Part shown: positions 8,794-60,494 of the stretch, one piece after another
Layout of the letters: each line of letters starts with the position of its first letter
How positions within the stretch are numbered: the stretch's first letter is position 1
DNA from: an uncultured Gammaproteobacteria bacterium
GTDB taxonomy: Bacteria; Patescibacteriota; Patescibacteriia; Magasanikbacterales; GCA-002688135
Direction of reading: 5' to 3'
NCBI GenBank assembly: GCA_964536205.1
Contig: CAZHVT010000003.1
Location: 12,271-72,897, forward strand
Length of the DNA stretch: 60,627 nt
Program-made: the position numbers and the translations under genes
The notes under the pieces: model-generated
Seen by the model: the letters and a program-made list of their open reading frames with translations, nothing else
Databases searched by the model: none
Told to the model about the DNA's origin: nothing

Positions 8794-8830
8794 GTCATCC
8801 TGAGCTTGTCGAAGGATCTCGTGAGGATGC
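8794..8830. repeat. GTCATCC-family palindromic repeat (GTCATCCTGAGCTTGTCGAAGGATCTCGTGAGGATGC)
   Basis: Related copies at 35365-35438, 60462-60494 and 18712-18749. Confidence 0.7.
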
Positions 8831-8903
8831 AAAATTAAAAATGTAACATCAAAAATCAAAAACACAGATTTAAGATTAAAAATTTTCGCGTTTTGCAATG
8901 CTC

Positions 8904-8941
8904 AATCAACTGTCATTGCGAGGAGGAACGACGAAGCAATC
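8904..8941. repeat. GTCATTGCGAGGAGG(A/T)ACGACGAAGCAATC repeat (variant B), immediately upstream of the NUDIX gene
   Basis: Near-identical copy at 13137-13174. Confidence 0.7.
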
Positions 8942-8944
8942 TAT

Positions 8945-9394
8945 ATGGAAATACAAAGACCAAAAGTAGGATTGGGAGTTATGGTGATGAAAGAAGGAAA
9001 AGTTTTGTTGGGCAAACGACGTGGTGCTCATGGTGAAGGACAGTATGCATGGCCAGGAGGGCATATGGAATATATGGAGAGTTTTGAACAATGTGCAAAA
9101 AGAGAGGTTATGGAAGAGGCTGGGATTGAGATTCAGAATGTGCGTTTTTTGCGAGTGATGAATTTGGTGCAATATGCGCCCAAGCATTACGTTGATATTG
9201 GATTGATGTGTGAATGGAAGTCTGGGGAAGTTCGTGTGTGTGAACCAGATCGTTGTGAGAGTTGGGCGTGGTATGATATTGATGATTTACCTCGTCCTCT
9301 ATTTCATACTATTGAATCATATATCGAAGCTTACAGAACTGGAAAGAATTTTTTTGACTATGAATATCAAAAAGAAAAGGAAGTGGTGATGTAG
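8945..9394 (+). CDS. NUDIX hydrolase
   Basis: Nudix box GGHMEYMESFEQCAKREVMEEAGI (GX5EX7REUXEEXGU). Confidence 0.85.
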   Translation: MEIQRPKVGLGVMVMKEGKVLLGKRRGAHGEGQYAWPGGHMEYMESFEQCAKREVMEEAGIEIQNVRFLRVMNLVQYAPKHYVDIGLMCEWKSGEVRVCEPDRCESWAWYDIDDLPRPLFHTIESYIEAYRTGKNFFDYEYQKEKEVVM

Positions 9395-9450
9395 TTTTGA
9401 ATTTTGAATTGTGGTTTTTAATTTTTAGCTTTGAGTTTTGATTTAATAAG

Positions 9451-9497
9451 GGATCCCTCGACTGCGCTCGGGATGACAATGGGGCGCTCGGGATGAC
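9451..9497. repeat. GTCATCCCGAGCG..GAGGGATCC-type repeat (reverse orientation) plus partial tandem duplicate GCGCTCGGGATGACAATGG x2
   Basis: Direct read. Confidence 0.65.
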
Positions 9498-9506
9498 AAT
9501 GGAAAT

Positions 9507-10541
9507 ATGCCAATAACAAAAACGAACGAACCAGTCGACATCAACAAACGTCGTATTATCAACGGCGAAGATGCTGATGTGATGCAGTTATATCCCATGA
9601 AACATACGTTTGCGTGGGATGCGTATAATGCGGGGAATGCAAATCATTGGTTACCAACGGAGATTTCTATGCAGCGTGATATTGAGCATTGGAAATCACC
9701 GACGTTTTTGACGCCAGAGGAGAAAAAGGCATTTGAAACAGTGTTAGGGTTTTTTACGACTGCTGATTCGATTGCAGCGAATAATATTGTGATTGCGTTT
9801 TATAAACATATTTCATCGCCGGAATGTAGGATGTATATGTTGCGACAATCATATGAAGAGGCGATTCATACGCATGCATATCAGTATATTGTGGAATCGT
9901 TGGCGTTGGATGAAGGGAAAATCTTTAATATGTATCGTGAAGTTGATGCGATTTATAATAAGGCGTCGTTTGTTTTGACCTTTAATGAAGGAATTTTCAA
10001 TCCAGAATTTAAAACAGGCACATTTGAGAATGATCAGAAATTTTTGGAGAACATGTGTGTATTCGCGTTGATTTTGGAAGGGATTTTCTTTTATTCATCG
10101 TTTGCGGTGATGTTTGGATTTCAGCGTCAGAATAAAATGATGGGATCGGCCGAGCAGATTCAATACATCATGCGAGACGAATCTCAGCATCTCAATTTTG
10201 GCATTAACATGATTAATACGATTAAAGAAGAACAACCAGAATTGTGGACGCCGGAATTTCAACAACATATTGTGAATTTAGTTCGTGAAGCTGCAACGCT
10301 TGAATACACATATGCACAAACGGTTTTTCCGAAGGGGATTTTTGGAATGAATGCTGATGGATTTAAACAATATATTGAATATATTGCTGATCGTCGGTTG
10401 TCGCGTGTTGGATTACCGTTGCAGTTTAATGTGACAAATCCATTTCCATGGATGAGTGAGGCAATTGATTTATCGAAAGAAAAAAACTTTTTTGAAACAC
10501 GAGTGACTGAATATCAGACAGGTGGTACTCTTGATTGGTAG
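9507..10541 (+). CDS. nrdB: Ribonucleoside-diphosphate reductase beta subunit (class I, ferritin-like)
   Basis: EEAIHTHAY and later E/H ligand motifs. Confidence 0.9.
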   Translation: MPITKTNEPVDINKRRIINGEDADVMQLYPMKHTFAWDAYNAGNANHWLPTEISMQRDIEHWKSPTFLTPEEKKAFETVLGFFTTADSIAANNIVIAFYKHISSPECRMYMLRQSYEEAIHTHAYQYIVESLALDEGKIFNMYREVDAIYNKASFVLTFNEGIFNPEFKTGTFENDQKFLENMCVFALILEGIFFYSSFAVMFGFQRQNKMMGSAEQIQYIMRDESQHLNFGINMINTIKEEQPELWTPEFQQHIVNLVREAATLEYTYAQTVFPKGIFGMNADGFKQYIEYIADRRLSRVGLPLQFNVTNPFPWMSEAIDLSKEKNFFETRVTEYQTGGTLDW

Positions 10542-10549
10542 TAATACAT

Positions 10550-10622
10550 GTCATCCCGGCGTAGGCCGGGATCCATCTTGCTAAACAGCATGGATCCCGG
10601 CCTACGCCGGGATGACTTTTTT
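10550..10622 (+). terminator. 67-bp perfect palindrome made of two inverted GTCATCCCGGCGTAGGCCGGGATCC repeat units, followed by a T6 tract; nrdB terminator
   Basis: GTCATCCCGGCGTAGGCCGGGATCCAT..ATGGATCCCGGCCTACGCCGGGATGAC then TTTTTT. Confidence 0.7.
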
Positions 10623-11465: not shown

Positions 11466-12248
11466 ATGAGTATCAATCTCATTATTATTTTAGTCGTTTC
11501 AGCGGCCGGCGTGCTGGGTTTTTTGGGCGCACTTTTGTTGTTGTGGAAATCTGATCTGGTGAAGAAGGTTGCGCATTACTTTTTGTCATTTGCTGTTGGT
11601 GCGATGTTAGGAGCTGTATTTTTTGATTTGTTGCCGGAATCGTTTGAATTGCATGATCCACACAAGGCATCACTTTTGATACTGCTGGGGATTTTCGTGT
11701 TCTTTGTGGTTGAGAAAGTTTTGGTGATTCAGCATTGTCATAAGCATGGAATTGATCGTAAGGGTGGTGTGTGTGATACAACTCGATTGCATTCAGCAAC
11801 GAGTTTGGTGATTGTAGGAGATTTTATCCACAATTTTTTGGATGGGGTTTTGGTTGCAAGTGCATTTTTAGTTTCGATTCCTGTGGGGATTTCTGCTGCG
11901 ATTGCAGAGATTGCGCATGAACTTCCGCAAGAGATTGGTGATTTTTCTGTGATGATCGCATCTGGGATGAAAAAAGCTCGTGTTTTGTTTTGGAGTATAA
12001 TTTCAGAATTGGGGAGTGTGTTGGGTGCGGTGCTGGTGATTGTGTTTCATAATCGGGTTGAGGGATTGGCGGAAATGTTGTTACCGATTGCGGCTGGTGG
12101 GTTGTTGTATATTGCGTTGTCAGATTTGATTCCAGAGTTGCATCATGAAAATCGAATTAATCATTCCGTCGTGCATTTGATTTTAATTGTGTTGGGAATC
12201 GCTTTGCTTTATTTTGTTGGTCAGTCGATCGGAGCACATGGACACTAA
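11466..12248 (+). CDS. zupT: ZIP-family metal transporter (ZupT-like)
   Basis: HNFLDG and HELPQE motifs; multiple TM helices. Confidence 0.8.
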   Translation: MSINLIIILVVSAAGVLGFLGALLLLWKSDLVKKVAHYFLSFAVGAMLGAVFFDLLPESFELHDPHKASLLILLGIFVFFVVEKVLVIQHCHKHGIDRKGGVCDTTRLHSATSLVIVGDFIHNFLDGVLVASAFLVSIPVGISAAIAEIAHELPQEIGDFSVMIASGMKKARVLFWSIISELGSVLGAVLVIVFHNRVEGLAEMLLPIAAGGLLYIALSDLIPELHHENRINHSVVHLILIVLGIALLYFVGQSIGAHGH

Positions 12249-12257
12249 CAGGTTTTT

Positions 12258-13121
12258 ATGAAAAAAGATAAATTTAGTGCAACGTGGGTTTCACATTCAT
12301 CGATTTCAGATTTTTTGAAATGTCCGCGTGCGTATTATTTGAAGAATGTATATAAAGATACTCGAACGGGGCATAAGGTTAAATTGATGTCTCCGGCGTT
12401 GGCGTTGGGTGGAGCGGTGCATGAGGTTTTAGAAAGTTTGAGTGTGTTGCCGAAAACTGATCGTTTTCGTGATTCATTGATCGAGAAGTTTGATGTGGTG
12501 TGGAAAAAATTTGAGGGTGAGAAGGGTGGATTTGCGAGTGATGAACAAGAGTTAAATTATAAAAAGCGTGGGCAAGATATGTTGCGACGAGTGATGCAAC
12601 ATCCAGGTCCGCTTTCTCGATTAGCGGTGAAAATCCAAATGGATTTACCGTATTTTTGGTTGAGCGAAGAAGATAATATTATTTTGTGTGGATTAATTGA
12701 TTGGTTGGAATATGATGCGGAATCGAAATCTGTGCATATTATTGATTTTAAGACGGGGAAGAATGAGGAGTCGAAGGATTCGTTGCAGTTGCCGATTTAT
12801 CGATTGTTAGTTGAGAATTGTCAGGAATGGCCGGTGGCTGGTGCTTCGTATTGGTATGTTGCACATCATGATGAACCAATTGAACAAGTATTGCCGCCAT
12901 CAGAAGAATCAAGAGAAAAAGTTTTGAAAGTTGCGCGTGACATAAAATTAGCTCGCCAAATAAAAGCATTTAAGTGTAAAAGCGATGGATGTTTTGCGTG
13001 TAAGGATTTGGAATTGATAGTTTCAGGGCAGGGGAAATTAGTTGGTGTGGATGATTATGGCGCGGATATTTATGTGTTAGAAAAAAAGGAGGAAGAAGTG
13101 AAGCAGAGTGTGATTTTGTAA
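12258..13121 (+). CDS. PD-(D/E)XK nuclease of the RecB/Cas4 type with 4-Cys (Fe-S) signature
   Basis: Motifs GGAVHEVLE, hIIDFKTGK, QLPIYRLL; N-terminal Cys (FLKCPRAYY) plus C-terminal CX5CX2C (CKSDGCFAC). Confidence 0.65.
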   Translation: MKKDKFSATWVSHSSISDFLKCPRAYYLKNVYKDTRTGHKVKLMSPALALGGAVHEVLESLSVLPKTDRFRDSLIEKFDVVWKKFEGEKGGFASDEQELNYKKRGQDMLRRVMQHPGPLSRLAVKIQMDLPYFWLSEEDNIILCGLIDWLEYDAESKSVHIIDFKTGKNEESKDSLQLPIYRLLVENCQEWPVAGASYWYVAHHDEPIEQVLPPSEESREKVLKVARDIKLARQIKAFKCKSDGCFACKDLELIVSGQGKLVGVDDYGADIYVLEKKEEEVKQSVIL

Positions 13122-13136
13122 TTTTCCACTGATTTT

Positions 13137-13208
13137 CATCAACTGTCATTGCGAGGAGGTACGACGAAGCAATCTATCAACATGGATCCCGGCCTTCGCC
13201 GGGATGAC
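13137..13208. repeat. Two adjacent repeats: variant B (GTCATTGCGAGGAGGTACGACGAAGCAATC) and variant C (CATGGATCCCGGCCTTCGCCGGGATGAC)
   Basis: Compare 8904-8941 and 10550-10616. Confidence 0.7.
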
Positions 13209-17090: not shown

Positions 17091-17192
17091 ATGCGTAGAT
17101 TGATGAAATTGTTTACAGATTGGTGGGGTTACTGTCACGAGTGTAAGAAGACCAAGCCTTGCAACTGTGGCGGAAGTTGGGATGGTAGTTAG
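17091..17192 (+). CDS. Small Cys-rich peptide (33 aa, MRRLMKLFTDWWGYCHECKKTKPCNCGGSWDGS)
   Basis: GGAGGT SD 5 nt upstream; hairpin + T6 terminator immediately after the stop; below the ORF-track size cutoff. Confidence 0.35.
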   Translation: MRRLMKLFTDWWGYCHECKKTKPCNCGGSWDGS

Positions 17193-18357: not shown

Positions 18358-19938
18358 TTACGAACCGTCAACAACTTTACCTCCAAATGTTTTGAGGACT
18401 TCTGCGACAGCTTTGTCTGATTCATCTGCTTGCGCCTCATTAACTGTTGTTTCGATGGTGATTGTTGTGTTGTATGTGTCTGTCAGGGCTTTGTGAATCA
18501 TTTCGCGCACTTGTGGTTCATCGATTCGTTTTTTGTGGAATTCGTAGGGGAATGAGAGGGTGAGTTTGTTTTGTTCGATGTTTGTTGGTTTGCATGTTTT
18601 GATGATGAGGGGGAGTGAGTGATTGTATGTGTGGAGATGTTCGATGAATGTACTCCAATTTTTTTGGATGGCAGGGAGTTCTAGTAATTCATTGTTTTGT
18701 GTCGTACTCTCGGGATCCTTCGACTTCGTTTCACTTCGCTCAGGATGACTCGTTGGTGCGGGTGCTTGCACGATTTCTTGATTTTTTGTTTTCTCGTTTT
18801 TTTGTTCACCAGATTTCTCGTTTTCTCGATTTTTTGATTTCTCGACAAAATTTTCAGCGCCAAGTGCGATTTCAACAGCAGACATTTCAAGCGGAAGATG
18901 AATAATGGGGGAGAGTCCGATTTCACGTCGTCGTTTTATTAAAATATCGAGTGTTGATAATAATCGATGAGTCTCTGTGCTATCTGCAATTTCTTGCAAC
19001 TTTTCTTTGTCTGTTGCATTGAAAAATGAATTTCCTACAGATTTTGTGGATTTGAGTAAAAGTAGTGCTCGAACAATGTCGATTGCGTCATCAATCACAT
19101 GGGGGATATTTGCTCCAGTTTCAATTATTTCGTGCAATGCTTTTAGGCTTTGCTGTGCTTCACCTTGTAATGCATGATTCAAATATGCGATGAGTTGTTC
19201 GTTTTTTCGGGTTGGTAATACAGCTTCTGCATCTTTTGATGTCACGGTTTTGTCTTTTGCGACTGCTATGATTTGTCCTAACAAGCTTTCACCATCACGC
19301 ATTGAACCTTGTGCGCGCCATGCAATGTGATCGAGGATTTCATCATCAATTGTTAAGCCCTCTTTTTTTAATAAGTCTGATAATCGATTTTTTATATCTG
19401 CTGATCCGATGTGTTTAAAAATGAATTGTTGGCATCGTGAAATAATTGTTGCGGGGACTTTGTGGGCTTCTGTGGTTGCCATCACAAAAATTGCATGAGC
19501 TGGTGGTTCTTCGATTGTTTTGAGTAATGCGTTAAATGCGCTGGCGGAAAGCATGTGAACCTCATCGATGATGAAGACTTTGTATTTTGAGGATGTTGGG
19601 GTGAAGCGCGCGTTTTCAATGATGTTTTCACGGACATTGTCTACGCCGGTGTGAGATGCAGCATCAATTTCAATGACGTCTATGGATTGTCCTTTTGCGA
19701 TGGTTGTGCAGCTTTCGCATTCATTGCACGGTTCTGCGGATTTTTCTTTTTTATTTTTACAGTTGAGTGATTTTGCGAGAAGTCGAGCAGAAGTTGTTTT
19801 TCCAACTCCGCGTGGTCCGCAAAATAAAAAAGCCGCAGCGAGCGAACCAGAAATAATTTCTTGGGTGAGTGTTTGTGAAACGTGGGGTTGTGCGATGAGA
19901 TCTGTCCATTGTTGAGGGCGGTGTGTTCGGTGAAGCAT
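18358..19938 (-). CDS. dnaX: DNA polymerase III subunit gamma/tau
   Basis: GPRGVGKTT Walker A, Cys cluster CKNKKEKSAEPCNECESC, clamp-loader motifs. Confidence 0.9.
   Translation of the reverse strand: MLHRTHRPQQWTDLIAQPHVSQTLTQEIISGSLAAAFLFCGPRGVGKTTSARLLAKSLNCKNKKEKSAEPCNECESCTTIAKGQSIDVIEIDAASHTGVDNVRENIIENARFTPTSSKYKVFIIDEVHMLSASAFNALLKTIEEPPAHAIFVMATTEAHKVPATIISRCQQFIFKHIGSADIKNRLSDLLKKEGLTIDDEILDHIAWRAQGSMRDGESLLGQIIAVAKDKTVTSKDAEAVLPTRKNEQLIAYLNHALQGEAQQSLKALHEIIETGANIPHVIDDAIDIVRALLLLKSTKSVGNSFFNATDKEKLQEIADSTETHRLLSTLDILIKRRREIGLSPIIHLPLEMSAVEIALGAENFVEKSKNRENEKSGEQKNEKTKNQEIVQAPAPTSHPERSETKSKDPESTTQNNELLELPAIQKNWSTFIEHLHTYNHSLPLIIKTCKPTNIEQNKLTLSFPYEFHKKRIDEPQVREMIHKALTDTYNTTITIETTVNEAQADESDKAVAEVLKTFGGKVVDGS
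18712..18749. repeat. GTCATCCTGAGCGAAGTGAAACGAAGTCGAAGGATCCC repeat inside the dnaX coding sequence (encodes ..SHPERSETKSKDPES..)
   Basis: Same repeat family as the intergenic copies; reading frame maintained. Confidence 0.7.
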
Positions 19939-19946: not shown

Positions 19947-20064
19947 AGTAAAGCGTAATGAGTAAAGTGTAATGTGGGTAGCAGAGTCGCCATAGGCGAC
20001 ATATTAATACGTCGCCTATGGCGACACTTTTTTACTCGTTACGCTTTACTCATTACGCGTTACG
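19947..20064. repeat. About 118-bp compound palindrome between dnaX and the upstream gene: GTAAAGCGTAATGAGTAAAG arms, twin GTCGCC(A/T)TAGGCGAC palindromes, T6
   Basis: Direct read; likely terminator of 20060-20842 plus a regulatory region of dnaX. Confidence 0.6.
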
Positions 20065-20878: not shown

Positions 20879-21517
20879 TTACGAAATGATATTTTCAATC
20901 GCACCCCATTGAGACGGAGAATCTTGTGGGACGAGAATGATTGCGCTGTCTCCAACAGTTCCTTTATAAAATGTGACTGATGCTGTGAGGACGTTGTATG
21001 TTTTTCCGTCGACGTGCACTCCATATTGTTTGCTTTCTTGATCGTATACGATAATGCCTTGTAGTCGCGCGCGTTCAGTTGGTCCGATTTGTTTGAAAAC
21101 GTATGCGCCTAGTTTTGTGATAGTGAGTTTCATCATGTCACCTTCCACCAATTTTGATTTTGATGCGTAGTTTGGTGGGATGTTGTATCTTTTTCCGTCA
21201 GCCCCGATCATTTGTTGTCCATCGAAAACTCCTTCAATAATTGTTCCGTCGATTGGTTCTGCATCTTCAAGATTGATGGATGGTTTTGTGTTGAAGTTTG
21301 TTTGTGGTACAGAAGAATCGTCATCCAATAGTTTTGCGACATTTAATAGTTTGCTCGAAATATCACGAAGTGCCTCCCGAACAATTGTCATTTTTTGATC
21401 GTTTTGTTGTGGTGCTGGTGTTGTTGCTTCGGGCTCTTTTGTCTTTGTTGCTTCAAACCCAGAAAATGCCGCTCCTCCTAAAATTTCTGTGATTTTTGAA
21501 AATTGTTTGTTTTCCAT
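20879..21517 (-). CDS. Hypothetical protein (212 aa)
   Basis: ORF only. Confidence 0.45.
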   Translation of the reverse strand: MENKQFSKITEILGGAAFSGFEATKTKEPEATTPAPQQNDQKMTIVREALRDISSKLLNVAKLLDDDSSVPQTNFNTKPSINLEDAEPIDGTIIEGVFDGQQMIGADGKRYNIPPNYASKSKLVEGDMMKLTITKLGAYVFKQIGPTERARLQGIIVYDQESKQYGVHVDGKTYNVLTASVTFYKGTVGDSAIILVPQDSPSQWGAIENIIS

Positions 21518-28865: not shown

Positions 28866-29882
28866 ATGGTCGAACCCCTGAAGGTCGTGACATTGGGTGG
28901 TGGCACGGGTCATTATGCATTGTTGCGCGCGTTGAAGTTGATTCCAAACGTTGATATTACCGCGGTGGTTTCGGTAGCTGATTCTGGTGGGTCATCCGGA
29001 GAGTTGCGAGATACACACGGAGGATTGCCTCCGGGTGATATTCTCAAAGCGATTCTTGCGCTTTCTGAAATGCATCCAGAGTTGGTGCGTGAGTTCATGT
29101 TGCATCGTTTTGATGAAGGCAAGTTTGCTCCTCATACGATCGGCAATATGCTGTTGACAATGCATGCGACGCAAGTTGAGAGTATGCAATCTGCGATCGA
29201 TAAATTCTCTGCTTTTTTGCTGGTAGAACATCGCGTCGTTCCTGTTTCATTGGCGAATATCTCTATTACTGCTCACTATTCTGACGGAAGTATGTTGGTT
29301 GGTGAGGGTGTGATTGATGAGTATCGTGGTGAAGCAAGCGTAAAAGAGTTGGTTATCGAACCCGATAGTGCGTATATTTGTCGTGCTGCCAGTCAGGCGA
29401 TCAGATTTGCGGATGTTGTCATCATTGCGCCTGGAAGTTTGTACACAAGTCTTCTTCCTGTTTTGCAAATGGGTGGAGTGGCTGATGTGTTACAACAGTC
29501 AAAAGCTTTGAAGATTTTCGTTTGCAACACCATGACACTCAATGGTGATACACGCGGTTTCTGTGTTTCGGATTTCATTGAGAGAATTGAAGCAGCGATG
29601 GGGTGCAAGCTCGATCGTGTGCTGGTTGATTCTTCAGATCATGAAGCCGATGTTCTAGAGCGCTACGCACAGCAATTTCAGTTTCCTGTGACGTGCACTG
29701 CAGAATGTTTGTTGAATGAACGTATTTTGGAAGCGGATCTTGTTGCTACCGGTGAGTTGGTTCGTCATGATTATGCAAAGCTTTCACAAGCACTGCAGGA
29801 CATCATGTTCGAATATTTTAATCAGCCGGTTCCAATTCGTCGGATATCGTCAGTTCGCTCTGTTTCAAAAGGCCGAACATAG
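28866..29882 (+). CDS. YvcK/CofD-like (UPF0052) family protein
   Basis: VVTLGGGTG and VVSVADSGGSSG motifs. Confidence 0.75.
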   Translation: MVEPLKVVTLGGGTGHYALLRALKLIPNVDITAVVSVADSGGSSGELRDTHGGLPPGDILKAILALSEMHPELVREFMLHRFDEGKFAPHTIGNMLLTMHATQVESMQSAIDKFSAFLLVEHRVVPVSLANISITAHYSDGSMLVGEGVIDEYRGEASVKELVIEPDSAYICRAASQAIRFADVVIIAPGSLYTSLLPVLQMGGVADVLQQSKALKIFVCNTMTLNGDTRGFCVSDFIERIEAAMGCKLDRVLVDSSDHEADVLERYAQQFQFPVTCTAECLLNERILEADLVATGELVRHDYAKLSQALQDIMFEYFNQPVPIRRISSVRSVSKGRT

Positions 29883-29954: not shown

Positions 29955-29979
29955 GGATTCCCGCCTTCGCGGGAATGAC
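29955..29979. repeat. GGATTCCCGCCTTCGCGGGAATGAC repeat (GTCAT-family variant) in the pilM leader
   Basis: Hairpin CCCGCCTTCGCGGG with the GTCAT-like terminus. Confidence 0.55.
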
Positions 29980-29989
29980 AATTTGTAAT

Positions 29990-31081
29990 ATGGGTTTATT
30001 TTCTAAGAAAGAAGAATCAATTTTAGGAGTTGATTTGGGTGCATCAAGTGTGAAGATGGTGGAATTGAAAAAGGAGAAACACCAAATGCATTTGGTGACC
30101 TATGGATATAGTTCTGGGGATTTGAAATTGCCAGATGATGATTTGGAGCAGAGGAATTTGCAGGCTGCGCTTATTAAGAAGGTTGCGGAAGGTTCAAAGG
30201 TGAAAACAAAAAATGTGATTGCGTCTGTTCCACTATCTGATGTATTTTCTGCTGTAGTTCGTATTCCGAATGTTGCAAAAAAAGAACAATCTGCTTTGAT
30301 TGAACGTGAGGCGCAGAAATTTTTACCTTTTCCTGTTGCCGAGGCTGTGGTTGATTGGAAAGTAATTGAAGATAAGAAAAAGAAGAAAGAAGCAAAGGGA
30401 AAAAGTTTTGAACATCAGAAGAAGGAGTTGGCGAAGGATATTTCTGCGTTGATTACAGCTGCGCCGCGTTCTACGGTTACGAGAATTGCAGATATTTTTA
30501 AACGCGCAGGATTTACTTTAAAGAGTTTGGAAACTGAAGCATTTGCTTTGACACGATCGTTAATTGGAAATGATCCGACAAGTGTATTGTTGGTTGATGT
30601 TGGTGCGGTGCGATCTAACTTTTTTGTGGTTGAAAATACGCTACCTGTGATGCATCGATCTATGCAGTTGGGTGGTGTGAATTTTACACAAGCTTTGGAT
30701 AATGTGTTGAAGGTTGGTTTGGAGAAAGCTGAACAAATGAAATCTGATATTATGTCGACGGGTGCGATTGAAGCGGATGAAACTGGATTTCCGAAAATTT
30801 TTCAACAAACGATTCAGCCACTTATTAATGAGATTCGTTATACCATGAACTTATATACGACACAGCAAGGTGGTACACATCCGGAGCGAATTGTGTTGAC
30901 TGGTGGTTCGTCATTGTTGCCACATTTAGATGCGTTTTTATCACATACATTTAATATGAAAGTGTTTGTGGGAGATCCATGGGCACGAACATGGTATCCG
31001 GAGAATTTACGTCCGGCATTATATGAAATTGGAACGCGTTTTGCGGTGTCTGTGGGATTAGCATTGAGGGAGGGGCAATAA
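29990..31081 (+). CDS. pilM: Type IV pilus assembly ATPase-like protein PilM
   Basis: LGVDLGASSVKMVEL actin-like N-terminus. Confidence 0.8.
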   Translation: MGLFSKKEESILGVDLGASSVKMVELKKEKHQMHLVTYGYSSGDLKLPDDDLEQRNLQAALIKKVAEGSKVKTKNVIASVPLSDVFSAVVRIPNVAKKEQSALIEREAQKFLPFPVAEAVVDWKVIEDKKKKKEAKGKSFEHQKKELAKDISALITAAPRSTVTRIADIFKRAGFTLKSLETEAFALTRSLIGNDPTSVLLVDVGAVRSNFFVVENTLPVMHRSMQLGGVNFTQALDNVLKVGLEKAEQMKSDIMSTGAIEADETGFPKIFQQTIQPLINEIRYTMNLYTTQQGGTHPERIVLTGGSSLLPHLDAFLSHTFNMKVFVGDPWARTWYPENLRPALYEIGTRFAVSVGLALREGQ

Positions 31082-35355: not shown

Positions 35356-35364
35356 CATCAACGT

Positions 35365-35438
35365 GTCATCCTGAGCTTGTCGAAGGATATCGTGAGGAAT
35401 TTTGATGGGATCCTTCGACTGAAAACGCTCAGGATGAC
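35365..35438. repeat. Inverted pair of GTCATCCTGAGC..CGAAGGATATC / GGGATCCTTCGA..GCTCAGGATGAC repeats between gatC and gatA
   Basis: Direct read; the long ORF-track start of gatA runs through it. Confidence 0.7.
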
Positions 35439-37565: not shown

Positions 37566-37581
37566 ATAGTATTTCGTATAT

Positions 37582-37633
37582 AGTATGTAGTATGTGGTAT
37601 TCAGCAACCTCACGAGGTTACATACTACATACT
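37582..37633. repeat. Perfect 14-bp inverted repeat AGTATGTAGTATGT / ACATACTACATACT enclosing a second 6-bp hairpin AACCTCACGAGGTT
   Basis: Direct read; between the LOG gene and lgt. Confidence 0.6.
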
Positions 37634-37652
37634 ACATACCATATACCAAAAA

Positions 37653-45448: not shown

Positions 45449-45451
45449 GTA

Positions 45452-45503
45452 AGCGATTAGCGATTAGAGGGTGCTGTCTACTAATCGCTAAACACTAAAC
45501 GCT
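45452..45503. repeat. TAGCGATTAG / CTAATCGCTAAAC hairpin (11-bp stem, 13-nt loop) + TAAACGC repeats abutting the 45511 ATG
   Basis: Direct read. Confidence 0.65.
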
Positions 45504-45510
45504 GTACGCT

Positions 45511-46020
45511 ATGAAAAAAGGATTTACATTAGTAGAAACAATAATTTATATCGGCATTATTAGTATTGTGCTTGTTGCGTTTGTTCGTTTTGTATTGAGT
45601 ATTTCAACAGCGCGTGAAAAGAATTTTGTTGTTGCTGAAGTGCAGGATCAAGCTCGGCATGCTATGGATGTGTTGGGGCAGCGTATTCGATTGGCTGATA
45701 GTATTTTAACTGCATCGTCCACATTTGATGTTGATCCGAGTGTTTTGGCTTTGACGATGACGTCATCAACAATTAATCCGACAGTATTTCAATTGACGGC
45801 TGATAATGGAATTTTGCAAATTACAGAAGGATCCGGAAGTGCGGTTTCTATTACGGGTGATAATTTGCGTGTGACAAGGTTTTTAGTGACTGATACAACT
45901 TCCAGTTCTCCTCGTGGAAGTGCACATGTATATTTAGAAGTTGAGTATAATAATTTGTCAGGGGATCCTCGTTTGGATTTTTCTCAGGAATTTCAAACAA
46001 CCATGGGTTTGAGACAATAG
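45511..46020 (+). CDS. Pilin-like / minor pilin (prepilin N-terminus KKG|FTLVETIIYIGIISIVLVA)
   Basis: Class III signal motif. Confidence 0.65.
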   Translation: MKKGFTLVETIIYIGIISIVLVAFVRFVLSISTAREKNFVVAEVQDQARHAMDVLGQRIRLADSILTASSTFDVDPSVLALTMTSSTINPTVFQLTADNGILQITEGSGSAVSITGDNLRVTRFLVTDTTSSSPRGSAHVYLEVEYNNLSGDPRLDFSQEFQTTMGLRQ

Positions 46021-46021: not shown

Positions 46022-46105
46022 AATTAGCGATTAGCGTGAAGCGTTTAGCGATTAGTAGGCAGTACCCTCTAATCGCTAAACGCTAAAAGCTAAACGCTAA
46101 ACGCT
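46022..46105. repeat. Hairpin AGCGTTTAGCGATTAG-loop-CTAATCGCTAAACGCT (16-bp perfect stem) in an array of TAGCGAT/TAAACGC heptamers
   Basis: Loop is the near reverse complement of the 45452 loop, so the unit occurs in both orientations. Confidence 0.7.
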
Positions 46106-46111
46106 TTCCTC

Positions 46112-46531
46112 ATGTATTCATCTACCAAACAAAAAGGAGCGGTTGCACTTATCACTGTTATTATTGTTGGTTCGGCTGCTTTAATCATGGCGTTTAATGC
46201 GATTCTTTTGGGGTTGAATGAAATTGAAATCGGGACGCTGCATAAAAAGAGTGCGCAAGCATTTGGGATTGCGGATGGTTGTATGGAGGAGTCTCTTATT
46301 CAGATCAGAAAAGATAATACGTATGGAGTTGGTTCGGGTACAATTTTATTGTCTCTGCTTGATGAAACCTGTACAATAGTGGTAACTGATTTGGGATCGA
46401 ATCAACGTCGCGTGAATGTTTTGTCTACTGTAGATGAGGAATATCATAAACGACTTGAGGTGACGTTAACGTTGACAGGAACGAATTTGAATATTATTAC
46501 GATTGATACGTGGGAGGAAAAAGATTCTTAG
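46112..46531 (+). CDS. Pilin-like protein (atypical N-terminus QKG|AVALITVIIVGSAAL)
   Basis: Hydrophobic N-terminal helix after a G; pilus cluster context. Confidence 0.45.
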   Translation: MYSSTKQKGAVALITVIIVGSAALIMAFNAILLGLNEIEIGTLHKKSAQAFGIADGCMEESLIQIRKDNTYGVGSGTILLSLLDETCTIVVTDLGSNQRRVNVLSTVDEEYHKRLEVTLTLTGTNLNIITIDTWEEKDS

Positions 46532-46537
46532 AAACAA

Positions 46538-46606
46538 GGGATTAGCGTTTAGCATTTGGCGTTTAGAAAGCAGCCTCTAATCGCTAAATGCTAATCGCTA
46601 AACGCT
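46538..46606. repeat. Imperfect long hairpin of TAGCGTTTAGCATTTGGCGTTTAG / CTAATCGCTAAATGCTAATCGCTAAACGC abutting the 46614 ATG
   Basis: Direct read. Confidence 0.6.
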
Positions 46607-46613
46607 TTCATCT

Positions 46614-48368
46614 ATGGACGCGTTTAGTATCTTCTGCCCGCACATGTCATTTCTAAGGAGAACATCTATCGCCATCGATATTAGTGATCGCTCGATCGCG
46701 CTTGTTCGGTTGCAAAAGGGAGCGGGGAAGGTGAAGGTTACACATCATGGTCGAGTTGGATTTCCAGAGGGAATTGTTTCTGCTGGGCGTGTGGTTAATC
46801 CAAAAGCTTTGAAAAAAGTTCTGGATCATTTGTTTGAGGTTGTGAAACCATCGTCAATCAAACCGTCTGAATTGATTGTTTCGTTGGCAGATCAATTGGT
46901 TTTTACGCATGTTTTTGAGCTTGAGCCGCATGACAAGGGTGATCGTGATGATATTGTGGCGGATGAGGTTCGCAATACGATTCCGATTTCAGAACAAGAT
47001 ACACAATTTGAATATGTTGTTTTGCATGAGGATAAAGAGGGGGTGCGCGTGCTTGTGACGGCGGTGAGTAAGAAGGAATTGACTGCATGGCGTAAGATTT
47101 TGAAATTGTCTGGTGTGAAAGTTTCTTTTTTTGATACTCAAATGTTGAGTGTGCATAGAGGATTGTTTAAGGGTTATCCGAGTGATTCTACGCTATTGAT
47201 TGATGTGGGTTCTGTTTCTACTAGTATGTCTGTGTTTGATGAATTTGGATTGTTGTACATTCACACAATTTTTTCTGCTGGGGATGCTATGACTGCGTTG
47301 ATAGCTGAATCGCAAAGTATTTCAATGAAAGATGCAGAGTTATTAAAACGTAATGAAGGATTGTCCAATCCAGGAAGTGCAGTTGCGAGTGTTGCCGTGA
47401 AACATTTAGAACCAATTATTCGTGCGGCAAAAGAATCGCTTGATTATGCAAAAGGTCACGGAGTTGAGGGTGAGATTGATGTTGTTTTGGTTGGGGGTAC
47501 TGCGCGCATGAAAGGTGTGGTGAAATATTTTGAAGCAAATTTGCAGGAGCCTGTTGTGCGAGGTGTTGCGGATTGGACGAAACCAAAATTGTCATTGTCA
47601 TACGTTGGAGCGGCTGGAGCGGCGCGTAAAGGATTGATGAAATCTCGTCATCCGGATCCTGTGTTTGCGACAGAGCGTGCTTCGTTTGTGAGTATGAAGA
47701 ACATGTTTAAGGGTTTGAAAAAAAGTAAAAAGAGTCCAGTTGGTGATACTGAAACAGAACAGATTACAGTTCCAGCCCAAAGCAAAACTATGATGCTGTT
47801 GAGTGTTTTGATGATTAGTGTGGTTTTGTTGGGTGGCGTGTGGTTGTTTCAGAAAAAAGAAAAGAAATCGGACCAAGAGAAAGAGGCTGCACAATCTGTG
47901 TATGTGCATGAATCTACGATTGTGGTATCTGCATTATTGGCAACATCTGATGAAAAATATGGAAGCGATCGTATTTCCGGACGCATTGTTGAAAATAAGA
48001 TTCAGGAAGCGATTAGTTATGGTAATGCAGTTGGACAATCTCGTGAGAAAGCAATGGATACATTGCGGGATGATGAGGTTTTGTGGCCGATTCCTATGTA
48101 TCGCGTTGATGAAGAGTATCCAATTAATTTTAGATGGTTTATGTATAATCAATCTGAAATGGATGGTCGATTTAAGGCTGACATAGATTCTCGAAATGAT
48201 GGAAATGTGGATTATATTATTAAGACAACATTGCCGGTAAAATGGGAATTTACGGAAGATATTGAAGTATTGCGTGTTGAGGCACAAGTTACGATTGCAG
48301 CGCAACAACCGTTTGTAGATAAGGGGGTAGAGAAGCCGGTTATAAAAGTTGAGTCTGTGGATGAATAA
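46614..48368 (+). CDS. PilM-like actin-fold protein fused to a TM segment and a PilN/PilO-like periplasmic domain
   Basis: N-terminal IAIDISDRSIALVRL PilM-like motif; TM at about residue 390 (MMLLSVLMISVVLLGGVWLF); 190-aa C-terminal domain. Confidence 0.6.
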   Translation: MDAFSIFCPHMSFLRRTSIAIDISDRSIALVRLQKGAGKVKVTHHGRVGFPEGIVSAGRVVNPKALKKVLDHLFEVVKPSSIKPSELIVSLADQLVFTHVFELEPHDKGDRDDIVADEVRNTIPISEQDTQFEYVVLHEDKEGVRVLVTAVSKKELTAWRKILKLSGVKVSFFDTQMLSVHRGLFKGYPSDSTLLIDVGSVSTSMSVFDEFGLLYIHTIFSAGDAMTALIAESQSISMKDAELLKRNEGLSNPGSAVASVAVKHLEPIIRAAKESLDYAKGHGVEGEIDVVLVGGTARMKGVVKYFEANLQEPVVRGVADWTKPKLSLSYVGAAGAARKGLMKSRHPDPVFATERASFVSMKNMFKGLKKSKKSPVGDTETEQITVPAQSKTMMLLSVLMISVVLLGGVWLFQKKEKKSDQEKEAAQSVYVHESTIVVSALLATSDEKYGSDRISGRIVENKIQEAISYGNAVGQSREKAMDTLRDDEVLWPIPMYRVDEEYPINFRWFMYNQSEMDGRFKADIDSRNDGNVDYIIKTTLPVKWEFTEDIEVLRVEAQVTIAAQQPFVDKGVEKPVIKVESVDE

Positions 48369-49010: not shown

Positions 49011-49541
49011 ATGAGTGACCAAACGCTAAATGCTAAACGCTTAAAGCTAAACGCTCAAAAGGGTTTTACCTTAATCGAGCTTTTAATTGTAGTAGCAATT
49101 ATTGCAATTCTTGCGGCTGTTGTTTTTGTTGCACTTGATCCTTTGAAGCGTTTTCAAGATTCCAGAGATTCCTCTCGCTGGCATGACATCGCAGAATTAT
49201 CAACAGCGATTAAATTACATCAAGTTGATAATGGAGGATATTATGCGACATCAATTCGTGATTTAGCGACATCCAGTGTGTATATGATTGGTGAGGGAAA
49301 TAGTGGATGTGATGATCAGAATGAATATTGTGCAACAAATGTGAACGGTGATAGTTTGTGTACTGAATTACCTGAAATTTTGAGTGGTGGTCAGATTGCC
49401 GCTTTGCCACAAAGTCCTAATGGAAATGCGTCATGGTCAGCGATTTATACTGGTTATACTATTCAAAAATCCATCACCAATAGTATTACTATTCGAGCAT
49501 GTGAGAAAGAGAATTCAACTGAAATTTTCATGACAAAATAG
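49011..49541 (+). CDS. Type IV pilin paralog (leader MSDQTLNAKRLKLNAQKG|FTLIELLIVVAIIAILAAV); alternative ATG at 48996
   Basis: Prepilin motif; the leader is encoded by TAAACGC-type repeats. Confidence 0.75.
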   Translation: MSDQTLNAKRLKLNAQKGFTLIELLIVVAIIAILAAVVFVALDPLKRFQDSRDSSRWHDIAELSTAIKLHQVDNGGYYATSIRDLATSSVYMIGEGNSGCDDQNEYCATNVNGDSLCTELPEILSGGQIAALPQSPNGNASWSAIYTGYTIQKSITNSITIRACEKENSTEIFMTK

Positions 49542-55351: not shown

Positions 55352-55435
55352 TCGTAAAGTGTAATGAGTAAGGCGTAAAGCGTTTGTATGTGGTATTGTC
55401 GAGATCGCATTACGCATTACGCTTTACGCATTACG
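55352..55435. repeat. Inverted CGTAAAGTGTAATGAGTAAGGCGTAAAGCG / CGCATTACGCATTACGCTTTACGCATTACG arms flanking TGTATGTGGTATTGT in the rluB-dnaG divergent region
   Basis: Same motif family as 19947-20064. Confidence 0.6.
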
Positions 55436-57162: not shown

Positions 57163-57244
57163 ACCCTTCATGCGAATCAACACATAAGGAATTCTTTGAG
57201 CTTTTAGGCTCGAATTTTTGTGTTTAATTTTGAAATTCCATTTT

Positions 57245-58615
57245 ATGCCGGCAAAAAAAGCATCAACAAAAAAGAAAACAAAAGCAAAGACAGCTGTTGA
57301 ACTTGCTAAAAAGAAATTAAAAAAGCTTGTTGCGAAGACTGCTAAAGCAACAAAAACTAAAAAAACCACCAAGGCTAAGAAGGAGGTTAAGAAGGTTGTA
57401 AAGAAAGCTGTAAAAAAAGCTCCTGCAAAAAAGTTGTCACGTAGAGCTTTGGCAGCCACAACAAAATCTAAAGTTGTAAAAAAACCAAAGGCAAAAAAAG
57501 CTCCACGTAAAAAAGTGAAGTATGTTAAAGCTGATCCGCCTTCTGAAGAACGATTGTCACGATTGTTTAATAAGGCAATGAAGCGTGGATTTATCACAGA
57601 AAATGAAGTGATGGTGACGTTTCCTGATATTGAGGATTATTTGATGGTGTATGAGGTCTTTTTGAATCATCTAGAAAAAGAAGGTTTGCAGTTGGTTGAG
57701 ATGCGAGAACAGTTGTTGGGAGGGAAGGAGCGTCAGCAGGAATTGTTAGAAGAATTGCATCTTACTCAAAAGGCGTATGAGGTTCCAGATTTGTCCGCGG
57801 ATTCTATTCAGATGTATTTGCGAGAGATTGGGAAAATTCCTTTGTTGACTGGTGAGCAGGAGGTTGCGCTAGCGAAACGAAAAGAAAAAGGAGATCGAGA
57901 AGCGGAAAAGGGTTTGATCGAAGCGAATTTGCGTTTGGTAGTTTCGATTGCGAAAAAATTTGTGGGAAAACAATTGACTTTGCTGGATTTAATTCAGGAG
58001 GGGAATATTGGATTGTTTCGAGCGGTGAAGAAGTTTGAGTATCGAAAGGGGTATAAATTTTCAACGTATGCGACGTGGTGGATCCGACAGGCGATTACGC
58101 GAGCTTTAGCGGATCAATCTCGTACAATTCGTATTCCGGTGCATATGGTTGAGACGATCAATAAGTTTCAGCAGATTTCTCGCCAACTTATTCAAGATTT
58201 GGGACGTGAGCCTACGCCGGAGGAAGTTGCGGCTGAAATGAATCAGGAATTGTATAAAGTGAAACATATCATCAAGATTTCGCAGGAAACGGTTTCTTTG
58301 GAGACTTCTGTTGGTGATGATGAGGAAGATTCATCGCTTCAGGATTTCATTAAGGATGTGAAATCGGTGACGCCCGATCGTGCAGCTGGATTACAATTAT
58401 TGAAAGATTATGTGCATAATGTGATTTCTGAATTAACTCCTCGTGAACAAAAGATTTTAGAAATGCGGTTTGGTTTGATTGATGGGGTGGGGCATACTCT
58501 TGAGGAGGTTGGTCGTGAGTTTAATGTGACACGTGAGCGTATTCGTCAGATTGAAGCGAAGGCGTTGGAGAAGATGCAGAAGATGGAGGGGATTGAGAAG
58601 TTGAGAGATTACTAA
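57245..58615 (+). CDS. rpoD: RNA polymerase sigma-70 factor with about 95-aa Lys/Ala-rich N-terminal tail
   Basis: Regions 2-4 ([14 protein letters not shown].., [21 protein letters not shown]). Confidence 0.9.
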
Positions 58616-58616
58616 T

Positions 58617-58814
58617 ATGGCTCGATTACCGACGATTCCTGAGATTAAAATATTTTTCAAGCTGTATATTCCTTTGTTGGGGGTGTTTGCTTTGTTTTAT
58701 TTTTTTCATCCTTCGTTTTCAGTGGATGATTTTTTTGCGTTTGCATTGTTTGGCGCAGCCTTTTTGATGATTGGTGTTCGGATTGTTTTTAGTGTTAGAG
58801 GTTTGTTTAGATGA
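58617..58814 (+). CDS. Small membrane protein (65 aa)
   Basis: Hydrophobic. Confidence 0.3.
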   Translation: MARLPTIPEIKIFFKLYIPLLGVFALFYFFHPSFSVDDFFAFALFGAAFLMIGVRIVFSVRGLFR

Positions 58815-58891
58815 GGTGGTTTGGTTTTAGGTATACCTGTATTTTGGATTGTGTTATAATATTAGACTAATATTTGTGATTAACTCACGTT

Positions 58892-60376
58892 ATGTTTAAA
58901 AAGAAACAAGAAGGGGGGGCGGCGAAACCTGCTCCTGCAGCACCTGCGCCGGCAGCTCCAACTGGAGTTGGGATTGCAACGCGTGTTGGTATGTCTACTG
59001 GCGTAAAGGTGTTGATTGGGGTTTTGGTGAGTGTGTTTATTGTTGGTGGAGGGATTGCTGCGTTCATGTTTTTTCGTGTGCCGCCACATCAACCACAGGA
59101 TCCGCAGACATTCTTGTTTCAATCATTTGAACAATTGATTTTGGCTGATGATGTGAGATTTACTTTGGCAGCTCCTGGGGAAACATTGGCTGCGTTGGCT
59201 GGTGATAATGCGGAGGCTGTAGATGAGCTTGGTGTGAAGCCCGCAGATTATACTTTGGGATTGACGCTCGATTTGGTTCAGGTTGATGAGAAGCGTATGG
59301 ATGCTGGCATGATGTTGAGTTTATTACCAAAATCTGGTGAAACTGGTTTTGAGTTGAATACGCGCCTTGTAGATGAGGATTTATATTTTCAATTGGCTCG
59401 TTTGAATTTTCCTGCGATTCCGTTTGCTTTAGATACAATATTGGGAAAATGGGTTGATTTGAATTTTGATGAAGTACAAGAAGAGATCAATTCTTTATTG
59501 GGAACAACAACAGATGAAGAGTCATTGAATCCAGAAGATTATGTGTATCCAGATGTGAAAAAGACGCTTGAGCGTGTGCGGGATATTTATTTGGCGGCGC
59601 CTGCGCTGGATTTGACGTTAGTTGCAGAAGATCAAAATACCGGTTTGGTGACATTGCAAGTAGAATCGAATGATCAGACGAAGGCGTTTATTGTTGATGC
59701 TATTGTTGAGGCATATGTAACATATTTGGAGGCAGTTGATGTTGCGATTAAAGAGAAGGATGCAGTTGGAGAAACAAAGCAGGTTACTGCATTGAAGAAC
59801 TATAAATCGACGTTAGTAGATGAAAATGGTGCGAAAGGAGAATTATTAAGAGTAGAGTTAGATCGTGAGATTGATTTGGATGATTCGTATGGACCAGATT
59901 CTCCATTGGTTGATGTGCAGACAATGTTGACATTGAATGTGAATACTGGACATTTAACACAGATTAAATATGTGTTGGTGTTTAAGGATGGAGTTGTTCG
60001 TCCGCCAATTGTTGGAATGTGGGGTGGATATAATGCGGGGAATGTCATTCAGCGGCCGATAGGTGCGATGTCCGTAGAAGAGTTTTTTGAACTTATTGAA
60101 GAGATGTTTGATGGCGGTGAAGAGGAGGTTATTGAGTCTGATGTTGAATTTGATGTTGTAACTCCTTCGGTTGATACGGATGGCGATGCGTTGAGTGATT
60201 TTGATGAGATGAATATTCATAAGACGGATATCAATAAAGTTGATACTGATGGTGATGCATTGGATGATTTTCTTGAGGTGAATATCTATAAGACTGATCC
60301 GTTGAATGCAGATACAGATGGCGATGGTTTTGCAGATGGAGTTGAGGTTGAAAATGGATATAATCCGTTGAAGTAG
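58892..60376 (+). CDS. Membrane-anchored hypothetical protein with C-terminal thrombospondin-type-3-like Ca-binding repeats (DTDGDALSDFDE x3)
   Basis: N-terminal Ala/Pro-rich segment + TM; three DxDxDG repeats at the C-terminus. Confidence 0.5.
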   Translation: MFKKKQEGGAAKPAPAAPAPAAPTGVGIATRVGMSTGVKVLIGVLVSVFIVGGGIAAFMFFRVPPHQPQDPQTFLFQSFEQLILADDVRFTLAAPGETLAALAGDNAEAVDELGVKPADYTLGLTLDLVQVDEKRMDAGMMLSLLPKSGETGFELNTRLVDEDLYFQLARLNFPAIPFALDTILGKWVDLNFDEVQEEINSLLGTTTDEESLNPEDYVYPDVKKTLERVRDIYLAAPALDLTLVAEDQNTGLVTLQVESNDQTKAFIVDAIVEAYVTYLEAVDVAIKEKDAVGETKQVTALKNYKSTLVDENGAKGELLRVELDREIDLDDSYGPDSPLVDVQTMLTLNVNTGHLTQIKYVLVFKDGVVRPPIVGMWGGYNAGNVIQRPIGAMSVEEFFELIEEMFDGGEEEVIESDVEFDVVTPSVDTDGDALSDFDEMNIHKTDINKVDTDGDALDDFLEVNIYKTDPLNADTDGDGFADGVEVENGYNPLK

Positions 60377-60385
60377 TTGGGGTTT

Positions 60386-60494
60386 TCATCCCGAGCGAAG
60401 TCGAGGGATCTCACAAAAAAAGCCTCGGCCTCGCCGGGGTTTTTGAAAACATCACCAACTCGTCATCCTGAGCGTTTTAGTCGAAGGATCTCGA
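60386..60494. repeat. Two GTCATCC-family repeats (60386-60412 and 60462-60494) flanking a terminator-like hairpin + T5 (60414-60445)
   Basis: TTCATCCCGAGCGAAGTCGAGGGATCTC ; GTCATCCTGAGCGTTTTAGTCGAAGGATCTCGAG. Confidence 0.65.

Follow-up and report, generated by a model that had tools for sequence, protein, structure and literature searches.

CGTC/TGTC-tagged hairpin repeats in a Patescibacteria genome and their probable kinship with Ssn-related motifs

The stretch of DNA considered here (contig CAZHVT010000003.1 of assembly GCA_964536205.1, forward strand, positions 12,271 to 72,897), referred to below as the window, is 60,627 nucleotides long (60.6 kb, 41% G+C) and belongs to a member of the Patescibacteria, or candidate phyla radiation (CPR). 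It carries nrdA and nrdB with a NUDIX hydrolase gene between them, a PD-(D/E)XK nuclease gene next to an open reading frame (ORF) of 1166 amino acids, dnaX, cofD, pilM and the pair gatC-gatA, and its GC skew is strongly positive from about 6 kb on. The NrdB protein is a 100% match to a metagenome protein, and its best named relatives (83-87%) come from Candidatus Magasanikbacteria and other Patescibacteria. Between these genes, and once inside dnaX, lie short hairpin units that begin with a GTCAT tag. It is proposed that these units are, in all likelihood, CGTC/TGTC-tagged repetitive extragenic palindromes (REPs), the same thing as the NTS-like Ssn-related motifs (SRMs), whose partner is a small GIY-YIG nuclease.

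Repeat units and their gene context

The heptamer GTCATCC occurs 19 times in the window against 6.5 expected, a count that none of 100 shuffles reached, and 12 occurrences of the family-specific pattern GTCATYSYGRS were counted where 0.73 would be expected. Hairpin and half-site searches of the window located 13 complete GTCAT-tagged units and one truncated unit at about ten places (Table 1), seven complete units on the plus strand and six on the minus strand. Their spread is uneven, since eight units lie within 4.4 kb and none in 1-8793 or 35439-60384. An earlier note on this DNA had counted at least 11 loci; the family is indeed far above chance, but the copy it placed at 17192 falls away, as GTCATCC there adjoins an unrelated ordinary terminator hairpin (ggttcggacatgtccgagcc followed by a T-run). 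The heptamers at 21320, 28991, 31416, 35562, 36150, 44638, 47647 and 55440 have neither a 3′ half nor a hairpin partner.

Table 1. Repeat units, neighboring genes and other repeats, in coordinates of the window
Feature	Position	Strand	Sequence and context
nrdA	5938-8784		
A unit	8794-8818	+	GTCATCCTGAGC-TT-GTCGAAGGATC, CGTC tag; 10 nt past nrdA stop; left bracket of NUDIX cassette
C unit	8912-8941	+	GTCATTGCGAGGAGGAACGACGAAGCAATC, TGTC tag; ends 3 nt before NUDIX ATG at 8945
NUDIX hydrolase gene	8945-9394		
D unit	9452-9477	-	GTCATCCCGAGCGCAGTCGAGGGATC; right bracket of NUDIX cassette, tag outward
Truncated 5′ half	9483-9497	-	GTCATCCCGAGCGCC; ~20-nt tandem duplication; just 5′ of nrdB ATG at 9507
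nrdB	9507-10541		
B unit	10550-10576	+	TGTC tag, 8-bp stem ATCCCGGC, loop GTAG, tail CCA
B unit	10590-10616	-	Right arm of homodimer, then TTTTTTG (terminator-like)
PD-(D/E)XK nuclease gene	12258-13121		
C unit	13145-13174	+	Left arm of hybrid dimer; between PD-(D/E)XK gene and 1166-aa ORF
B unit	13184-13208	-	Loop GAAG, tail CCA; right arm of hybrid dimer
dnaX	18358-19938	-	
A unit	18713-18749	-	13-nt apical insert; in frame, sense, inside dnaX
cofD	28866-29882		
B unit	29955-29979	-	GTCATTCCCGCGAAGGCGGGAATCC; upstream of pilM; plus strand reads MDSRLRGND
pilM	29975-31081		
A unit	35365-35389	+	Left arm of head-head dimer between gatC and gatA; tail C mutated to A
A unit	35408-35438	-	Apex GTTTTCA, CGTC tag; right arm of gatC-gatA dimer
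D unit	60385-60410	+	Degenerate tag TTCATCCCGAGCGAAGTCGAGGGATC; 9 nt past stop of 494-aa ORF
A unit	60462-60490	+	CGTC tag; head-tail tandem with 60385 unit
Second repeat family, copies	1-55, 502-556, 1347-1401, 5075-5129; 3134-3212, 3960-4038, 5056-5134		
7-nt arrays	45451-45511, 46025-46112, 46536-46620, 49013-49055; 19948-20063, 55352-55383; 37569-37650		

By stem and apex the units were grouped into four types, a grouping that is our own: A, GTCATCCTGAGC-apex-GTCGAAGGATC (five units); B, GTCATYCCSGCG-NA-GGCSGGRATCCA (four units); C, GTCATTGCGAGGAGGNACGACGAAGCAATC (two units); and D, GTCATCCCGAGC-apex-GTCGAGGGATC (two units and the truncated copy). The three variant consensuses quoted in the earlier note were correct. 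Two stem designs can be distinguished, i.e., the perfect 8-bp stem of the four B units (ATCCCGGC or ATTCCCGC) and the stem of the nine A, C and D units, which is interrupted by tandem G·A and carries a variable apex. The eight stem positions of A and D units begin with AT and have the tandem G·A at positions 6-7, and the predicted stem of C units is just 5 bp long. Loops are of 4 nt in B units (GTAG or GAAG) and of 5 nt (CTTGT) in the A units at 8794 and 35365, and the apices of the remaining seven units measure 7-16 nt. The tag is TGTC in seven units, CGTC in three, AGTC in two and a degenerate TTTC in one, so that GTC is present in 12 of 13; a GTAG/GTRG tag was found in none of the 13. The C that directly follows the palindrome is likewise present in 12 of 13: the 3′ tail is CCA in all four B units, and its first C is kept in eight of the nine others (CTC, CCC or CTA), the exception being the A at 35389.

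The units are arranged as three head-head dimers with tags outside and two head-tail pairs, and no tail-tail pair occurs. Two of the dimers, 10550-10616 and 35365-35438, had been noticed before as inverted pairs and are real; the third is 13145-13208, and in all three the GTCAT ends face outward. In DNA folding the B units are more stable than shuffled sequences (z = -4.2), and the pairs 10550-10616 and 35365-35438 fold at -40.5 kcal/mol (z = -13.2) and -22.1 kcal/mol (z = -8.0), respectively. Across genomes, 163 distinct apices of A-type units were collected, and these beat shuffles in folding (-3.4 vs. -1.3 kcal/mol). The variable apices from many genomes are mostly C-GNA-G mini-hairpins, and the B-unit loops read C-GTA-G and C-GAA-G. 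DNA mini-hairpins of the d(GCGAAGC) type, studied by Hirao and colleagues, are reportedly C-GNA-G triloops with a sheared G·A pair. The same C-GNA-G occurs in the B-unit loops of the window and in many A apices elsewhere, which by analogy may be relevant here, although the mini-hairpin is a structural motif, unlike the window units, which form a repeat family.

Several units stand in close contact with genes. As had been stated in the earlier note, units abut start codons, namely the ATGs at 8945 and 13220; directly 3′ of the unit at 13184-13208 lies the Shine-Dalgarno sequence AAGGAGAGG, followed by the second of these ATGs. The unit within dnaX, also seen before, is in frame and encodes SHPERSETKSKDP in the poorly conserved, variable linker that joins domain III to the C-terminal domain; the dnaX ortholog of the relative L009 contains no unit. 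Past the nrdB stop the units at 10550-10576 and 10590-10616 pair up, as left and right arm, into a perfect head-head homodimer, and the right arm together with the T-run was scored as a terminator-like site at the nrdB end. Of the two terminator stems proposed earlier, at 10550 and 17192, the former can be kept as terminator-like, and at the latter the heptamer is a chance match. Between the units at 60385 and 60462 there is a GC hairpin with a T-run.

The NUDIX segment (8785-9506, about 720 bp) is bracketed by the outward-facing units 8794 (plus strand) and 9452 (minus strand), and also by imperfect A/T-rich inverted segments of 36 nt.

Some minor sequence observations concern the surroundings of the units. 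The ORF-called start of pilM (29975) is an ATG within the ATGAC of the repeat, and the ATG at 29991 is more likely the true start. A motif CAYCAAC stands 1-3 nt 5′ of the GTCAT tag in six of the 13 units, i.e., in all A and C units but one (8785-8793, 8903-8911, 13136-13144, 18750-18758 on the minus strand, 35356-35364 and 60453-60461), as well as in the relative L010 (7382-7390, and 7963-7974 on the minus strand); it could mark a cleavage or target region. In the window lineage the A units have a TCGWGAG extension on their 3′ side. Neither motif was seen in the cross-phylum set of units, whose upstream consensus is rich in C and has CT as its last two letters.

Relatives and distribution in other genomes

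The earlier note had advised that insertion sites be compared across strains. This comparison was made on loci numbered with the prefix L, and the population contigs L001-L005 were uninformative, as they are 99.9-100% identical. An apparent 43-bp insertion in L003 was rejected, being a scaffold gap. Four relatives whose NrdB is 88-96% identical to that of the window (L006, L007, L009 and L010) do differ in units. The closest arrangement is that of L010, which has units around NUDIX as in the window, an extra B unit before NUDIX and a half-unit comparable to 9483-9497; it lacks both the dimer that follows nrdB and the one that precedes the 1166-aa ORF. An empty site of the 13145-13208 dimer is seen in L009 and L010, where the PD-(D/E)XK gene and the 1166-aa ORF are only 2-6 nt apart (6 nt in L010). 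In L006 and L007 nrdA and nrdB are spaced by 16 nt, with no NUDIX gene and no units there, so that the NUDIX segment present in L010 is absent from both (compared with L006 9973-10000); they carry a different dimer, at 11474-11587. The 10550-10616 and 13145-13208 dimers are missing from L009 too, which has no units in 15 kb. As a side observation, the nrdA-nrdB spacer of L009 (3296-4003) consists of about 700 nt of non-coding DNA with its own tandem-like repeats of about 120 nt, and holds neither NUDIX nor GTCAT units. Several assemblies end at units, as is expected for multi-copy sequence: L002 and L004 break at 10590-10616, and L219 and L220 end near 60462-60490.

The earlier note had considered that the motif might be confined to the window, which would speak against a propagating family; hundreds of genomes contain the motif. 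An A-type core of exact sequence, with an apex of 2-30 nt, was found in 88 IMG/VR stretches and, among the matches listed, in more than 119 species-representative genomes, which belong to at least 12 phyla, at a chance expectation that by our own arithmetic is about 0.5 in 596 Gb. These phyla include Patescibacteria, Acidobacteriota, Verrucomicrobiota, Bacillota, Actinomycetota, Bacteroidota, Fibrobacterota, Proteobacteria, Gemmatimonadota, Chloroflexota, Omnitrophota and others. An exact copy of the 30-nt C unit is present in more than 120 metagenome stretches among the matches listed. Across genomes most units lie between genes, and their orientation is not biased with respect to the neighboring genes (28/20/18/18), which fits an element that acts at the DNA level. 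In the viral-labelled IMG/VR contig L048, and also in L042 and L043, up to eight A units per 14 kb lie on one strand with about 25 nt of conserved flank on either side, which suggests longer composite repeats in those genomes.

Probable kinship with Ssn-related motifs and other explanations

The sequence family, which the earlier note did not recognise, has already been described, in two bodies of work. The first is the survey of CGTC-tagged REPs by Di Nocera, De Gregorio and Rocco (BMC Genomics 2013; PMC3733652), in which a superfamily of four families, CGTC-1 to CGTC-4, was defined by an unpaired CGTC tag (often TGTC, with CCTC variants allowed), a stem of 8-9 bp whose first pairs are almost always A-T and T-A, a loop of 4-5 nt and a CCA tail. 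CGTC REPs occur mostly as head-head dimers with tags outside, their intragenic copies are concentrated in replication and repair genes, the peptide DSRLRGND is listed for CGTC-1 insertions, and no species was found to have CGTC units flanking a Y1 transposase gene (Di Nocera et al., 2013). The members comprise dRS3 of Neisseria, RPE-4 and RPE-6 of Rickettsia, and REPs of Wolbachia and alphaproteobacteria. The comparison with Rickettsia RPE made in the earlier note was therefore apt, RPE-4 and RPE-6 being members of this same superfamily, and its reading of a REP-like dispersed palindromic family was right. The B units of the window fit every feature of the definition (tag, AT-starting stem, loop and CCA tail), and the window also shares the head-head homo- and heterodimers, an in-frame copy in a replication gene, the DSRLRGND peptide and the lack of an associated Y1 transposase. 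The A, C and D types stand largely outside the published definitions, because the survey required clean palindromes. Its genomes spanned five phyla, CPR not among them, and hybrid dimers of different subtypes, such as 13145-13208, are described there only for GTAG families. When the unit sequences themselves were looked for in the full text of papers, the only matches were unrelated primers.

The second is the study of Chenal et al. (Nat Commun 2025; PMC11893778), where the Neisseria Transformation Sequence, or NTS (CGTCATTCCCGCGMAVGCGGGAATCYRG), was generalised as the SRM. Apart from its two outermost positions, the unit at 29955-29979 (tGTCATTCCCGCGAAGGCGGGAATCCAt) agrees with the NTS consensus, and it is in essence the consensus of Neisseria NTS/dRS3. 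In that work SsnA was described as a single-domain GIY-YIG nuclease of 94 amino acids (Ssn proteins have about 95 amino acids and belong to cd10448), and in Neisseria and Wolbachia Ssn was shown to bind the tag strand folded as single-stranded DNA (ssDNA) and to cut it at a distance of a few nucleotides 5′ of the tag; Ssn acts neither on the opposite strand nor on double-stranded DNA or RNA (Chenal et al., 2025). Mutagenesis showed that cleavage depends on the three bases that precede the palindrome, and binding on the C that follows it (Chenal et al., 2025). These correspond to the GTC tag and the post-palindrome C that are each kept in 12 of the 13 window units, A, C and D types included, so that (C)GTC tag, hairpin and following C are common to SRM, NTS, dRS3 and the units described here. 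When the published SRM pattern, HGTCWYN(0-2)YYVSBRHN(0-5)WNVSBRGN(0-2)RNCYNB (PMC11893778), was run over the window, it gave four matches, which are the B units, against 0.07 expected and a maximum of two in 100 simulations. The layout SRM-gene-SRM of the published system is matched by the bracketing of NUDIX. Differences should also be named: nine of the 13 window units have a G·A-interrupted stem and an apex of 5-16 nt and so fall outside the published pattern, the host is a member of CPR, which is not named in the main text of that paper, and a role in restricting transforming ssDNA was shown only in Neisseria.

In the SRM system the repeats are found near 71% of ssn homologs (Chenal et al., 2025), and a partner gene of this kind was searched for by tblastn, with approximate small GIY-YIG queries, over 343 loci of 2.67 Mb in total. 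Six small GIY-YIG ORFs of 81-118 amino acids were obtained, all of which match Pfam GIY-YIG with E-values of 1e-11 to 1e-16, and all six lie 0-244 nt from A or C units, two of them (L233 and L341) with units on both sides. As the loci had been fetched by the repeat, some unit is always present in each, and what is informative is the short distance, the loci being on average 7.8 kb long. In a profile search the GIY-YIG family appeared very large, at least 8,000 candidates being scored; they include the protein P0136, annotated as Patescibacteria, in whose locus (L343, 35% G+C) the gene is preceded by three units and followed by one, the tags facing outward. Among them is a unit identical to the C unit 8912-8941 of the window. 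Small single-domain GIY-YIG genes flanked by units thus occur as in the SRM system, including in a metagenome-assembled genome of Patescibacteria. When the ORFs lying up to 1.5 kb from units in L012-L218 were clustered all against all, only syntenic phage genes grouped together, and no gene family turned up repeatedly in unrelated taxa; the GIY-YIG genes escaped this clustering, which applied a 90-aa cut-off and included just one of them at that point. A sequence search of the PDB with one GIY-YIG protein returned only weak UPF0213 matches and no Ssn structure.

In the proposed model a unit consists of an unpaired 5′ (C/T)GTC tag, a hairpin stem beginning with A-T and T-A, a short loop or small apical mini-hairpin, and a C right after the palindrome, often as CCA. 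The window units would be, or would recently have been, substrates of a CPR homolog of Ssn encoded elsewhere in the genome, and the gain and loss of units between close relatives may reflect ssDNA processing or recombination linked to Ssn. Some copies could have acquired secondary local effects, the dimer with its T-run as a terminator of nrdB, others as hairpins in operon spacers, and one as a tolerated in-frame insert of DnaX.

Several points weigh against this model. The published SRM pattern misses all A, C and D units, i.e., nine of 13, and as single units these are no more stable than shuffled sequences (z from 0 to +1.5), with only a 5-bp stem under standard DNA parameters; the earlier claim that the units fold into hairpins holds in thermodynamic terms for B units and inverted pairs and fails for these. 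Neither the window nor the 10 kb that precede it (L221) yielded a GIY-YIG or Ssn-like ORF to motif search and the approximate tblastn queries, and a regular expression for the GIY-YIG motif had no match in six-frame translations of the window and its close relatives. The association rests on a small sample of six genes, which are candidate members of cd10448. Moreover, 19% of SRM-rich genomes have no ssn (Chenal et al., 2025), and no Ssn is known to copy or insert repeats.

It is nevertheless most probable, in our judgment, that the units are CGTC/TGTC-tagged REPs identical in kind to SRMs. A conspicuous feature of the window would then be explained by an existing framework, with the expected partner corrected from RAYT, the REP-associated tyrosine transposase, to the Ssn GIY-YIG ssDNA nuclease. 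The CPR instance and the subclass with G·A stem and variable apex are modest extensions of that framework, not a new kind of element. CPR genomes carry these repeats, and at least one has an Ssn-like gene flanked by the same unit. The G·A-stem subclass escapes the published pattern and yet is tied to small GIY-YIG genes, and therefore the published censuses probably undercount the family. Relatives that differ by units, dimers and the NUDIX cassette are material that could bear on how such repeats multiply. In annotation, the units account for spurious small ORFs (of the DSRLRGND type), wrong start codons (29975) and assembly breaks.

A stronger version may be entertained, only tentatively and as rather doubtful: that the A, C and D units form a distinct class of Ssn substrates, pan-bacterial and phage-borne, which the published SRM definition missed and which spreads selfishly and moves cassettes such as NUDIX in CPR. 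The identity of the 23-30-nt A, C and D cores from CPR to Acidobacteria, Firmicutes and Bacteroidota is in keeping with it. If it were true, horizontal spread of modules of a GIY-YIG gene and hairpins would be ongoing as a selfish system resembling insertion sequences, and in streamlined CPR genomes the units may bracket or move gene cassettes, e.g., NUDIX between nrdA and nrdB.

It is unlikely that the units are primarily hairpins acting in RNA, as terminators, mRNA stabilisers or processing sites kept by selection at each site. The terminator-like unit at the end of nrdB, the position of several units in co-directional spacers (nrdA-NUDIX-nrdB and gatC-gatA) or against ribosome-binding sites, and the argument that many REPs are transcribed (Di Nocera et al., 2013) would agree with such a role. 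However, units in 148 instances have no orientation bias relative to flanking genes and the window units are split almost evenly between the strands (7+/6-); single A, C and D units are thermodynamically weak; and Rfam gave no match to the units: only three tRNAs of the window pass the gathering threshold and E-value scans of the window and of multi-copy loci yielded sub-threshold miRNA-like hairpins. Identical cores of 23-30 nt in at least 12 phyla are hard to explain by local selection, and RNA is not an Ssn substrate (Chenal et al., 2025). A role in RNA is compatible with the SRM reading where some copies were secondarily co-opted, but it does not explain how the family arose.

Mobilisation in trans by RAYT, an IS200-like Y1 HUH transposase, is very unlikely. 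The elements known as REP, BIME and REPIN with their RAYT (TnpA-REP) in Enterobacteria and Pseudomonas do share much with the window family, namely tagged short hairpins, inverted doublets, a mainly intergenic location and gain or loss between strains, and, as for SRMs, an ssDNA hairpin that is recognised by a small nuclease. They differ in the tag, which is GTAG there and CGTC or TGTC here, in the partner (Y1 HUH against GIY-YIG), and in being lineage-specific in sequence, while cores of the window type are identical across phyla. The RAYT/IS200 partner suggested in the earlier note was not borne out: with approximate queries no Y1-like ORF was found in the window, and the 343 loci held two, neither flanked by units. 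The RAYT-like gene of L127 lies about 600 nt from an A unit and has terminal inverted repeats of its own, unrelated to the units, and the Y1-like gene of L191 is 5 kb from a unit; by contrast, the small GIY-YIG genes are flanked by units in six of six cases, and no CGTC-flanked Y1 gene is known from the published survey (Di Nocera et al., 2013).

Still less probable is the MITE-like origin suggested in the earlier note, by which the units would be miniature inverted-repeat transposable elements, deletion derivatives of a DDE-type insertion sequence with GTCATCC terminal inverted repeats. The inverted pairs of 64-74 bp with outward tags do resemble tiny elements bounded by such repeats, but none of the three dimers has target-site duplications (flanks ACAT/TTTT, AACT/AAGG and ACGT/GATT), single units and head-tail arrangements are frequent, every arm forms a hairpin of its own, the arms of 13145-13208 are of different subtypes, and no transposase recurs beside units. 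A chance or compositional artefact, which would account for the eight isolated GTCATCC heptamers in coding sequence, is already refuted for the family by the two pattern counts (12 vs. 0.73 and 4 vs. 0.07) and by identical units in hundreds of unrelated contigs. Among structural candidates, a hammerhead-like core (CUGA...GAA), a kink-turn, domain V of group II introns, integron attC sites and an origin from the tRNA T-arm were rejected by eye, since their conserved positions or bulges do not fit.

Other features of the window

At the very end of the window (60567-60627) lies a tRNA-like 5′ half (GGTAGCTCAGTGGTAGAGCAGTTGACT...), apparently interrupted after the anticodon stem; it was called by neither ARAGORN nor Rfam. 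A second repeat family, unrelated to the units described above, has copies of 55-79 nt between small minus-strand ORFs (Table 1). Each copy consists of an A/T-rich hairpin (CTGATGTTGATG..CATCAG or CTGACAATGAAC..CATTATCAG) and a GC-rich hairpin. Intergenic arrays with a period of 7 nt (AGCGATT/AGCGTTT, GTAAAGC/GTAATGA and GTATGTA) form long inverted arms, and the ORF 45511-46020 is bracketed by array arms of 60 nt that are 85% complementary. The ORF of 551 amino acids at 1408-3063 (minus strand), whose identical product in L001 matches the Pfam families Vault_3, MVP_shoulder and Band_7, is a predicted major-vault-protein-like gene in a CPR bacterium.

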